Part shown: in pieces, positions 58,028-58,857 of the stretch
How the letters are laid out: every line of letters begins with the position of its first letter
Numbering within the stretch: position 1 is the stretch's first letter
DNA from: Escherichia coli
Lineage (GTDB): Bacteria; Pseudomonadota; Gammaproteobacteria; Enterobacterales; Enterobacteriaceae
Strand: one strand, 5' to 3'
NCBI RefSeq assembly: GCF_013315695.1
Contig: NZ_CP054353.1
DNA length: 64,000 nucleotides
Program-made: the position numbers and the translations under genes
The notes under the pieces: model-generated
What the model was told of the DNA's origin: nothing
Seen by the model: the letters and a program-made list of their open reading frames with translations, nothing else
The model's database searches: none

Positions 58028-58549
58028 TTACAGCCTCTGTAACGGATTATCAGCCCTGGCATCTTCCGACGGCACCTCCTGCCGCCCCCACGCCCTGCTG
58101 TATACCCCGGTACCGCAGCGTGGGCAGCACTTTTCCCCCTCATAATCTTCGTCACACATCACACAAAACCACTTTCTCACCTTCACCGTATAATCCGGAA
58201 CCGTCATGCCCTGCAGATGCAAACGACGGGCCTCTTTCTCTGCCGGGTCAAGCCAGGTACATCGCAGCAGGATTTTTTCAGCGACAGTCATCTGGTCATG
58301 TTCAAACCACGGTGGTTGTCCGTCATTGCCCCGCTGAAGTGTTAACGGGCATCCACAGGACACACAGCACAAAACGTCCTGTCGGTTGTGCTTCGCAGCT
58401 TCTTTCGCCGTAACAAAATGGCCTTTGCTGTCATTCGCCATATAACAGTTCAGAATTCGCATATTTCCTCCTGAGTTGTCCGGGGAATACTGAATCCTCC
58501 GGTCTGGCAGTGTGTGCAGTACTGCTCCCCATAATAATCGTGGTGACAT
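58028..58549 (-). CDS. Cys-rich putative zinc-ribbon protein (paralog 1)
   Basis: CVSCGC, PPWFEH and C-terminal CVMCDEDYEGEKCCPRC motifs. Confidence 0.5.
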   Translation of the reverse strand: MSPRLLWGAVLHTLPDRRIQYSPDNSGGNMRILNCYMANDSKGHFVTAKEAAKHNRQDVLCCVSCGCPLTLQRGNDGQPPWFEHDQMTVAEKILLRCTWLDPAEKEARRLHLQGMTVPDYTVKVRKWFCVMCDEDYEGEKCCPRCGTGVYSRAWGRQEVPSEDARADNPLQRL

Positions 58550-58857
58550 TGTCTGCAGTGCCAGCTGGCTTTACGCACCACGGGTAAGGCATCCGGTACG
58601 AATTGCTGCAGACGTTTAATCAACTGTATTTCTCTGCGCTCCGGCCTGACATAAGGGCACTGTTGACCGTGCTCTGTCAGCCTGTCGTCAGTGTGTTCAA
58701 ACCAGGGAAGTTCAGTGTCGTATTGCGGATGGTATCTGAGTGCACTGCCACACAAGTGGCAGGTGTAGTGAGCATAAGGTGCGGCCTGTGCAGTACGGGC
58801 GCCCGTCAGACGTCCGTTGCCATCAAGAGCGATAAAGGATTTTGCGTACATAGTCAT
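58450..58857 (-). CDS. Cys-rich putative zinc-ribbon protein (paralog 2)
   Basis: CHLCGS, LPWFEH and CRQCHHDYYGEQYCTHC motifs parallel to paralog 1; 3-prime end overlaps paralog 1. Confidence 0.5.
   Translation of the reverse strand: MTMYAKSFIALDGNGRLTGARTAQAAPYAHYTCHLCGSALRYHPQYDTELPWFEHTDDRLTEHGQQCPYVRPERREIQLIKRLQQFVPDALPVVRKASWHCRQCHHDYYGEQYCTHCQTGGFSIPRTTQEEICEF

Follow-up and report, generated by a model that had tools for sequence, protein, structure and literature searches.

An overlapping pair of zinc-ribbon family genes accompanies a YfjJ/YagK-like gene in CP4-like islands of Escherichia coli and in other Enterobacterales

Two small overlapping genes, termed here ZnA and ZnB, are found on the minus strand of a 64,000 nucleotide (nt) stretch of the E. 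coli contig NZ_CP054353.1 (assembly GCF_013315695.1). This stretch is referred to as the window, and positions given without a locus number are positions in it. ZnA, the upstream or A-type gene, is situated at 58450–58851 and encodes 133 amino acids (aa) (RefSeq WP_000270962). ZnB, the downstream or B-type gene, is situated at 58028–58462 and encodes 144 aa (RefSeq WP_001221615). The two belong to a family of zinc-ribbon proteins, collectively termed ZnR below. Directly upstream of ZnA and in the same orientation lies a gene of the YfjJ/YagK ("inovirus Gp2") family (59111–59716, minus strand; RefSeq start 59680). This neighborhood, and a fusion of the two types of gene in Serratia, form the basis of a tentative proposal that ZnA and ZnB are accessory subunits of the mobility module of the island that carries them. 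The window segment 57700–59800 is 100% identical to the E. coli chromosome of strain MSB1_4I.

The original prediction, made from the nt sequence and its open reading frames, described two minus-strand open reading frames of 173 and 135 aa, the 3′ end of the upstream gene overlapping the start region of the downstream one. Both open reading frames are present, the longest for ZnB at 58028–58549 (173 aa) and the longest for ZnA at 58450–58857 (135 aa), but the lengths do not stand. The ZnA start at 58851 (ATG-TAC) and an upstream AAGGA Shine-Dalgarno sequence are kept across islands, and the N-terminus of ZnA homologues is MYAKSF. The ZnB start is the ATG at 58462, with AGGAGG four nt upstream, and the N-terminal sequence MR[IM]LKCY is kept among homologues. 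Since homologue N-termini, Shine-Dalgarno sites and RefSeq agree for both genes, the lengths are taken to be 144 aa for ZnB and 133 aa for ZnA; the longer frame of ZnB, up to 58549, is a longest-ORF artefact. With the starts corrected to 58462 and 58851, the overlap remains but is 13 nt (ATGCGAATTCTGA, 58450–58462) instead of about 100 nt.

The junction between the genes (58450–58472, minus strand) has the ZnB start and the ZnA stop within the 13 nt overlap, and the ZnB Shine-Dalgarno sequence AGGAGG at 58467–58472 lies within the 3′ end of ZnA. A Klebsiella plasmid island displays the identical 13 nt overlap geometry (ATGCGCATGCTGA), and its proteins are only 46–62% identical to those of the window. 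At other loci the genes overlap by 4 nt or by 1 nt, or, in one case, are 51 nt apart.

Both proteins show full-length similarity to the Pfam family DUF7828 (PF25165), ZnA with an E-value = 2.5e-31 over model positions 1–87 of 87 and ZnB with an E-value = 9.3e-31 over positions 2–86 of 87. Both also match Zn_ribbon_11 (PF11682, formerly DUF3279), with E-values of 8.6e-9 (ZnA) and 1.7e-18 (ZnB); the hidden Markov model (HMM) of this family has 37 positions, and its criterion is four Cys residues arranged as CxxC-x9-CxxC. ZnA and ZnB are thus full-length members of the DUF7828 plus Zn_ribbon_11 family and show no difference from it. DUF7828 is matched by all 33 of the aligned family members, and the two sequences are identical to RefSeq entries annotated as "putative zinc ribbon" or "zinc-ribbon domain-containing protein". 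The Pfam matches bear out the initial description of the pair as Cys-rich zinc-ribbon proteins, and the three motifs noted at that time are present in both: an N-terminal CxxCG (CHLCG in one paralogue, CVSCG in the other), a central PWFEH (LPWFEH and PPWFEH) and a C-terminal Cys cluster (WHCRQC..DYYGEQYCTHC and WFCVMC..DYEGEKCCPRC).

Over the 33 full-length members, and with ZnB numbering, the invariant residues are C33, C36, F53, H55, C100, C103, C113 and C116; C68, W98, Y107, G109, G119 and S122 are nearly invariant. The pattern suggests two metal sites in each protein, one formed by CxxC, the His of WFEH and a further Cys in the N-domain, and the other a C4 ribbon in the C-domain with the pattern W-x-CxxC-x3-Y-x-G-x-K-x-CxxC-x-TGIYS. 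Zinc would be the predicted metal at both. An AlphaFold2 (AF2) model of ZnB built from the 33-sequence alignment gives a mean predicted local distance difference test (pLDDT) of 87.9 and a predicted template modelling score (pTM) of 0.57, the linker between the two domains being less well defined; a model from just 7 sequences had a pLDDT of 64, a poor value.

Profile HMM and structure searches had been proposed along with the original prediction. When run, they yielded as the only confident assignment the two Pfam families above, for which no function is characterised, and no well-characterised family was matched. Foldseek comparison with the PDB shows no significant structural neighbor (best E-value = 0.8), comparison with AFDB50 gives family members only among the 50 matches listed, and an NCBIfam search gave nothing usable for either protein. 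Several UniProt entries of the family (B7MMF4, B7LG76, F4T7M7 and others) are labelled "DNA-directed RNA polymerase, beta subunit/140 kD subunit", and other members are named "Ybl85" or "Competence protein". No result of this analysis justifies the RNA polymerase name.

ZnA and ZnB share 31% identity over 125 aa (BLASTP, E-value = 2e-15), which, with the two Pfam families in common, supports the proposed paralogy. A distance tree of ZnR domains from 12 independent loci shows three groups, designated A-, B- and C-type. The A-type clade, with identities of 40–67%, comprises the AlpA/Gp2-adjacent copies of the window, of the Klebsiella plasmid and of four loci from metagenomes or genomes. The B-type comprises ZnB of the window, downstream copies from two other loci and one single-copy gene, and the C-type accounts for the second copies of other islands, one of them again from E. 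coli. The A- and B-types each have orthologues in other genera. The tree shows the duplication to be ancient, an A-type clade, usually upstream, being combined with variable B- or C-type partners. A recent tandem duplication, as first envisaged, is not borne out, as the tree shows an old pair of distinct subfamilies. The number of ZnR copies per locus varies from one to three, and P0072 represents a natural fusion of 1.5 copies.

The ratio of nonsynonymous to synonymous substitution rates (dN/dS) is 0.16–0.24 for ZnA, as determined by comparison with the Klebsiella plasmid and with two further E. coli islands, and 0.07–0.16 for ZnB, values that show purifying selection on both genes. Given these ratios and the A- and B-type orthologues in other genera, ZnA and ZnB are both maintained, and neither copy is a dead duplicate.

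The gene upstream of ZnA is central to the interpretation. Its product shows high similarity to Pfam YagK_YfjJ_C (E-value = 8.2e-48) and a lower one to REP_ORF2-G2P (E-value = 3.1e-5). The alignment reveals HYH and YLAK motifs, which resemble the HUH and YxxK motifs of rolling-circle initiators, and the protein is referred to here as a predicted HUH-Rep-like protein. A Gp2-like gene is found no more than about 1 kb upstream of ZnR and on the same strand in 14 of the 14 loci that have enough upstream sequence, and the ZnRs of these loci are only 20–60% identical. An AlpA-family gene lies beside Gp2/ZnR in 12 of the 14, in the order Gp2-AlpA-ZnR or AlpA-Gp2-ZnR. AlpA is immediately upstream of ZnR in most other islands, where the neighbors match Pfam Phage_AlpA, but the E. 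coli-type loci (the window, L019 and L020) have no AlpA at the adjacent position. The window and L020 show the order Gp2-ZnA-ZnB with AlpA approximately 2.4 kb away on the opposite strand. The AlpA-family helix-turn-helix (HTH) regulator/excisionase gene of the window is at 61299–61505 on the plus strand, approximately 2.4 kb from ZnA, and is annotated by RefSeq as a "helix-turn-helix transcriptional regulator" (L001 23600–23806).

A second YagK/YfjJ-like gene, designated Gp2′, directly follows the ZnR genes in three islands (L012 9493–10059, L020 2518–3084 and L027 5559–6359). In the aligned Gp2′ copies, those of L012 and L020, neither the HYH nor the YLxK motif seen in the upstream copy is present, and these two are probably catalytically dead paralogues. 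A Gp2′ remnant was also sought between ZnB and the insertion sequence (IS) that follows it in the window, an IS66 element, but none was detected; IS66 holds that position.

ZnR and a Gp2-like domain are also found fused. P0171 (L002 2797–4161) is a 454 aa protein with an N-terminal ZnR, an unannotated region of about 150 aa and a C-terminal degenerate Gp2-like domain. Five more fusion clusters (P0224–P0228, 466–468 aa), which include Serratia fonticola and other Serratia, show 45–52% identity to P0171 with full coverage. Comparison of the fusion C-terminal region with the YagK/YfjJ family profile gives an hhalign probability of 95.8% and an E-value = 7e-9 over 141 columns. Weaker tests of the P0171 C-terminus gave less: BLASTP against the window Gp2 is not significant, and single-sequence hhalign is marginal (63%). 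The Gp2-like region of the fusion lacks the HUH and Tyr motifs, as does Gp2′, and P0229 (324 aa) represents a stand-alone form of the fusion C-terminal part. The Serratia fusion is a conserved lineage and not an assembly artefact, and it mirrors the unfused gene order of ZnR followed by Gp2′.

A conserved non-coding leader is present upstream of ZnA (58852–58940, minus strand), with a small hairpin core, GCCCGTACCGGGACGGC, at 58891–58907. Most of the approximately 85 nt that precede the ZnA start, among them about 60 uninterrupted nt (CCACGCTGCCC..GTCTGGCGG), are shared without change by the islands of E. coli and the Klebsiella plasmid island (L012 8515–8593), although their ZnA proteins are just 62% identical and the remaining intergenic DNA is unalignable. 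The core, CTGCCC-N3-6-GGGACGG, recurs as a hairpin upstream of other A-type genes. Six pairs are predicted and three of these display compensatory changes, in an alignment of six sequences only; the folding stability of the leader is not unusual (z = −0.66), and Rfam shows nothing in 55000–64000. As to its role, the sequence may serve as an operator or as an AlpA site, act as an mRNA leader, or represent a recombination tract. The sole other near-match to the hairpin core in the window, with 3 mismatches, is at 17320–17336 on the minus strand, just downstream of the integrase open reading frame; about 0.08 such matches are expected by chance, and coincidence is possible. The intergenic region between Gp2 and ZnA also carries a direct repeat, GCCGCCAGAC(G/A)ACA, at 58866–58879 and 59054–59067, 188 nt apart, one copy of which abuts the ZnA Shine-Dalgarno site.

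The island that carries the pair is inserted at the tRNA-Leu(CAA) gene leuX (15271–15355), with the integrase open reading frame at 15857–17098. As first proposed, and as the annotation bears out, the pair is positioned between an IS66 element and the Gp2-family gene in a CP4-like module. The IS66-family element (tnpA, tnpB, tnpC) extends over 55513–57764 on the minus strand, with open reading frames at 55513–57693 and its end placed by blastn, about 265 nt downstream of the ZnB stop. On the cargo side of ZnR the window thus has IS66, followed by fec and other genes; at other loci the genes next to ZnR are Kiwa together with a type I restriction-modification (R-M) system, an OLD/UvrD pair, or an ars operon. 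The ZnR genes belong to the constant backbone, where it borders on the variable cargo, and are not themselves cargo. The fec genes of the window form a complete fecIRABCDE ferric-citrate uptake operon, bracketed by IS1, IS3 and IS66 (operon and elements within 43644–51189 and 55513–57764); this cargo lies in the part of the island that separates its integrase end from its ZnR end.

Two further observations concern the surroundings of the block. A 67 aa open reading frame at 59877–60080 on the plus strand, divergent from the Gp2-like gene, encodes a CxxC..CxxC zinc ribbon with a hydrophobic helix after it. RefSeq annotates it as hypothetical; it is kept in L019 and L020 and has only weak generic zinc-ribbon Pfam matches. 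In two metagenomic loci (L024 227–1456 and L025 1719–2714), the AlpA/Gp2/ZnR block is preceded by a divergent gene whose product contains RepB-RCR_reg, a domain that regulates the replication of rolling-circle plasmids; one of the two products also has an RHH_1 domain.

The 830 bp pair, at a coverage of at least 80%, is found in 2982 of 5426 complete E. coli genomes (55%), with a median of two places per genome, nearly always chromosomal. The exact ZnA and ZnB proteins are each present on at least 1000 contigs. A profile search of 1.84 billion cluster representatives shows only 257 clusters (at 50% identity) with an E-value of 1e-3 or better, so that the family is a small one. All named relatives are from Enterobacterales: Escherichia, Salmonella, Klebsiella, Citrobacter, Enterobacter, Serratia, Pectobacterium, Cedecea, Budvicia, Moellerella and Raoultella. 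The family is found in 32 plasmid records, mostly large Klebsiella plasmids that bear the same island module. A scan of genome contigs gave matches only on E. coli-like contigs in a Collinsella metagenome-assembled genome.

Database versions of the genes are often truncated, frameshifted (including read-throughs) or chimeric. P0033–P0054, P0066, P0068 and P0071 are of this kind and include mosaics that switch ZnR subtype part-way, and the chimeric forms suggest frequent recombination among paralogues of different islands in one genome. In strain D1 (L019 4001–4435), ZnB is a pseudogene with a stop codon at W52, the invariant Trp of WFEH, and the adjoining ZnA is intact.

Comparison with characterised systems shows partial similarities. 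CoiA carries a small putative C2H2 zinc finger N-terminal to a PD-(D/E)XK nuclease domain (bioRxiv 10.1101/2024.02.06.579203). The ZnR N-domain has recurrent matches to CoiA_N (PF25164) below the Pfam threshold: ZnB has an E-value = 0.39, and 9 of 33 members have an E-value of 0.1 or less, the best being 1.3e-3, with none reaching 1e-3. DUF7830 gives recurrent sub-threshold N-domain matches likewise among the 33 members. ZnR and CoiA share a CxxC ... aromatic-F-x-H pattern at the N-terminus, and CoiA acts on DNA. However, the ligand set of ZnA and ZnB would be C2-H-C rather than C2H2, the C4 ribbon is additional, and the similarity stays under Pfam thresholds. Membership in the CoiA family proper is rejected, as no PD-(D/E)XK nuclease domain (PF06054) is found at an E-value of 10 or less and the proteins stop 20–40 residues past the C4 ribbon. 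A search of PDB sequence profiles gave a match to RPB9 (E-value = 0.01, 77 columns). RPB9 and TFIIS are likewise small proteins with two zinc sites approximately 65 residues apart, but homology to their double zinc ribbon was rejected, as the Foldseek comparison provides no structural support.

Zinc modules are combined with an HUH enzyme in the IS91/ISCR and Helitron transposases and in the Rep protein of adeno-associated virus (AAV). The ZnR loci resemble these in joining a zinc module with an HUH Rep-like domain, the Serratia fusions having the ZnR N-terminal and the Gp2-like part C-terminal. They differ in that the zinc proteins of the window are separate polypeptides forming a paralogous pair, and in that neither the HUH nor the Tyr motif is present in Gp2′, whether fused or adjacent. 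No sequence similarity to the IS91, Helitron or AAV Rep zinc fingers is seen among the Pfam matches of ZnA and ZnB. At the level of the whole island, the Pseudomonas transfer-messenger RNA (tmRNA) islands I23, I44 and I55 have an integrase, AlpA, an inovirus-Gp2-like gene, RadC and defence cargo (bioRxiv 10.1101/2024.08.29.610337). Like the islands described here, they combine AlpA, RadC and a Gp2-like gene with a tyrosine integrase located at a tRNA or tmRNA and with defence cargo that varies, and nothing recognisable as a transfer gene is present. Zinc proteins, on the other hand, are not mentioned in that paper (zero occurrences of "zinc"; bioRxiv 10.1101/2024.08.29.610337), and the ZnR family was found only in Enterobacterales.

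The interpretation we favor, tentatively and as somewhat less likely than not, is that ZnA and ZnB are zinc-binding accessory subunits that direct the Rep-like/AlpA mobility module of the island to DNA or to a partner. The mobility core of a CP4-like integrative island would then consist of the integrase, AlpA and the YfjJ/Gp2-like HUH protein, with ZnA and ZnB as accessories. Each ZnR would have two domains, a CoiA-N-like N-domain (candidate ligands CxxC, the His of WFEH and a Cys) and a C4 zinc ribbon. ZnA and ZnB would be made from one transcript, with ZnB translation coupled to ZnA termination, and such coupling of an A-type with a B- or C-type gene would give near-equal amounts of the two proteins and probably a hetero-oligomer. 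The ZnRs would target or assist the Gp2-like protein or proteins in replication or mobilisation of the excised island. To this end they could bind island DNA, at an origin or nick site or as a single strand, or else contact the Gp2-like protein itself. They may supply recognition of DNA or partner in the way that the N-terminal zinc finger of CoiA presumably acts in cis, and as zinc fingers do in the IS91- and Helitron-type HUH enzymes. The tie between ZnR and a Rep-like gene is drawn because of the invariant neighborhood and the Serratia fusion, and the RepB-RCR_reg genes of two loci also speak for it; zinc binding, heteromer formation, DNA or partner binding, and any part in replication or transfer are putative. 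The earlier suggestion of nucleic-acid binding or regulation is plausible, and is sharpened by synteny and the fusion to a link with the YfjJ/Gp2-like protein and AlpA. A more specific version, that a dedicated complex of ZnA and ZnB picks out the origin, or the strand that is displaced, on behalf of the YfjJ/Gp2-like HUH initiator and may couple this to AlpA-triggered excision, is speculative and appears rather doubtful.

Several observations weigh against the accessory-subunit interpretation. Single-copy loci occur, in which the lone gene is of the A-type, of the B-type or of some other type, and one locus has a B-like copy ahead of the A-type; because of these loci, an obligate A:B heterodimer is not general. 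The K-12 islands CP4-6 and CP4-57, when checked, have YagK and YfjJ but no ZnR homologue, and thus Gp2-like proteins do not need ZnR. Conversely, in a remnant of E. coli B-DidR near tRNA-Asn/cobUST (L021 8978–9774), ZnA and ZnB are intact with no Gp2-like, AlpA or integrase gene. This remnant is heavily eroded, the pair being flanked solely by IS fragments and a DUF957 fragment, and E. coli B strains may offer a natural background with the pair only. The HUH/YxxK role of YfjJ-like proteins rests on alignment reading, and their enzymatic activity is putative. The isoelectric points (pI) of ZnA and ZnB are near neutral (6.7–6.9), whereas DNA binders are typically basic. Around the operon, matches to promoters and terminators occur no more often than in shuffled sequence, and a literature search found no published work on the DUF7828/Zn_ribbon_11 (PF25165, PF11682) family. 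The literature on island backbone genes likewise yielded nothing functional.

A role as regulators of island transcription, acting under or downstream of AlpA by binding DNA or RNA polymerase and switching the integrase, the adjacent cargo or helper functions, is possible but on balance unlikely. Elements of the P2/P4 type encode zinc-finger activators, Ogr in P2 and delta in P4, which provide an analogy. ZnR is the next gene after AlpA, and co-oriented with it, in 9 loci; the conserved leader with its small hairpin before A-type genes would fit an operator or autoregulatory site; the ZnR genes face the cargo/integrase side; and RPB9, to which the weak profile match above was seen, is a polymerase subunit with two zinc ribbons. 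However, ZnA and ZnB match neither Ogr_Delta nor any transcription-factor family of Pfam at an E-value of 10 or less, and none of the 33 members matches Ogr_Delta at 0.1 or less, so that relationship to the Ogr/Delta activators is rejected. Regulation alone would also leave the fusion to a Gp2-like domain unexplained, and AlpA of the window is on the other strand and 2.4 kb distant.

An anti-defence function, which was among the candidates first named, or a defence function is improbable; the pair would in that case shield the island on entry against restriction or CRISPR of the host, or would itself sense or block phage. Small Cys-rich proteins are common among anti-defence factors, the islands hold anti-restriction (KlcA/ArdB-type), RadC and DUF932 genes, and defence cargo begins directly beside ZnR. 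Yet the searches lend no support. PADLOC-DB v2 gives no match for ZnA and one for ZnB that is not meaningful (E-value = 0.063, 10 bits, 31 residues); tblastn against 50,697 phage records shows no homologue; and no PHROG matches below an E-value of 0.018. Furthermore, ZnR and the anti-restriction cluster are on opposite sides of the core, and ZnR is constant while the neighboring defence cargo varies.

An addiction module, that is, a toxin-antitoxin-like pair which stabilises the island, is less probable still. A small overlapping two-gene operon has the appropriate form, and in the E. coli B remnant the intact pair alone outlasts the erosion of the island. But ZnA and ZnB are paralogues with the same fold and metal-ligand pattern, unlike known toxin-antitoxin pairs, single-copy loci are common, and strain D1 carries its ZnB pseudogene beside an intact ZnA with no sign of lethality. 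The islands, moreover, already hold a CbtA/YeeU-type system. Least credible of all is that the genes are decaying, functionless remnants, with one or both copies non-expressed: the many defective database versions and the premature stop in one strain would fit, but dN/dS of both genes (E. coli against Klebsiella included), the Cys/His columns invariant over 33 divergent members, the abundance of the exact sequences, and the gene order and overlap kept across genera all argue to the contrary. What probability remains is left to a role of some other kind.

ZnA and ZnB are already catalogued as sequences, in two Pfam families and in RefSeq entries, but are uncharacterised, and they do not constitute a new kind of system. 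New here are the A-, B- and C-type subfamilies, the conserved coupling of the genes, the obligate synteny with a Gp2-like gene, the ZnR-Gp2′ fusion and the conserved leader element. The pair is often multi-copy in an E. coli genome and is part of the backbone of islands with virulence, iron-uptake and anti-phage cargo. These CP4-like islands, found in over half of E. coli genomes, are apparently non-self-transmissible; their replication and transfer are poorly understood, and YfjJ and YagK belong to the E. coli "y-ome". As the obligate companion of a Rep-like gene, fused to it in one lineage, ZnR offers an inexpensive experimental entry point to this neglected island backbone. If the origin-recognition version of the proposal were true, the AlpA-Gp2-ZnR block would be the replication/mobilisation engine of CP4-like genomic and pathogenicity islands, and would provide a handle on how such islands move.

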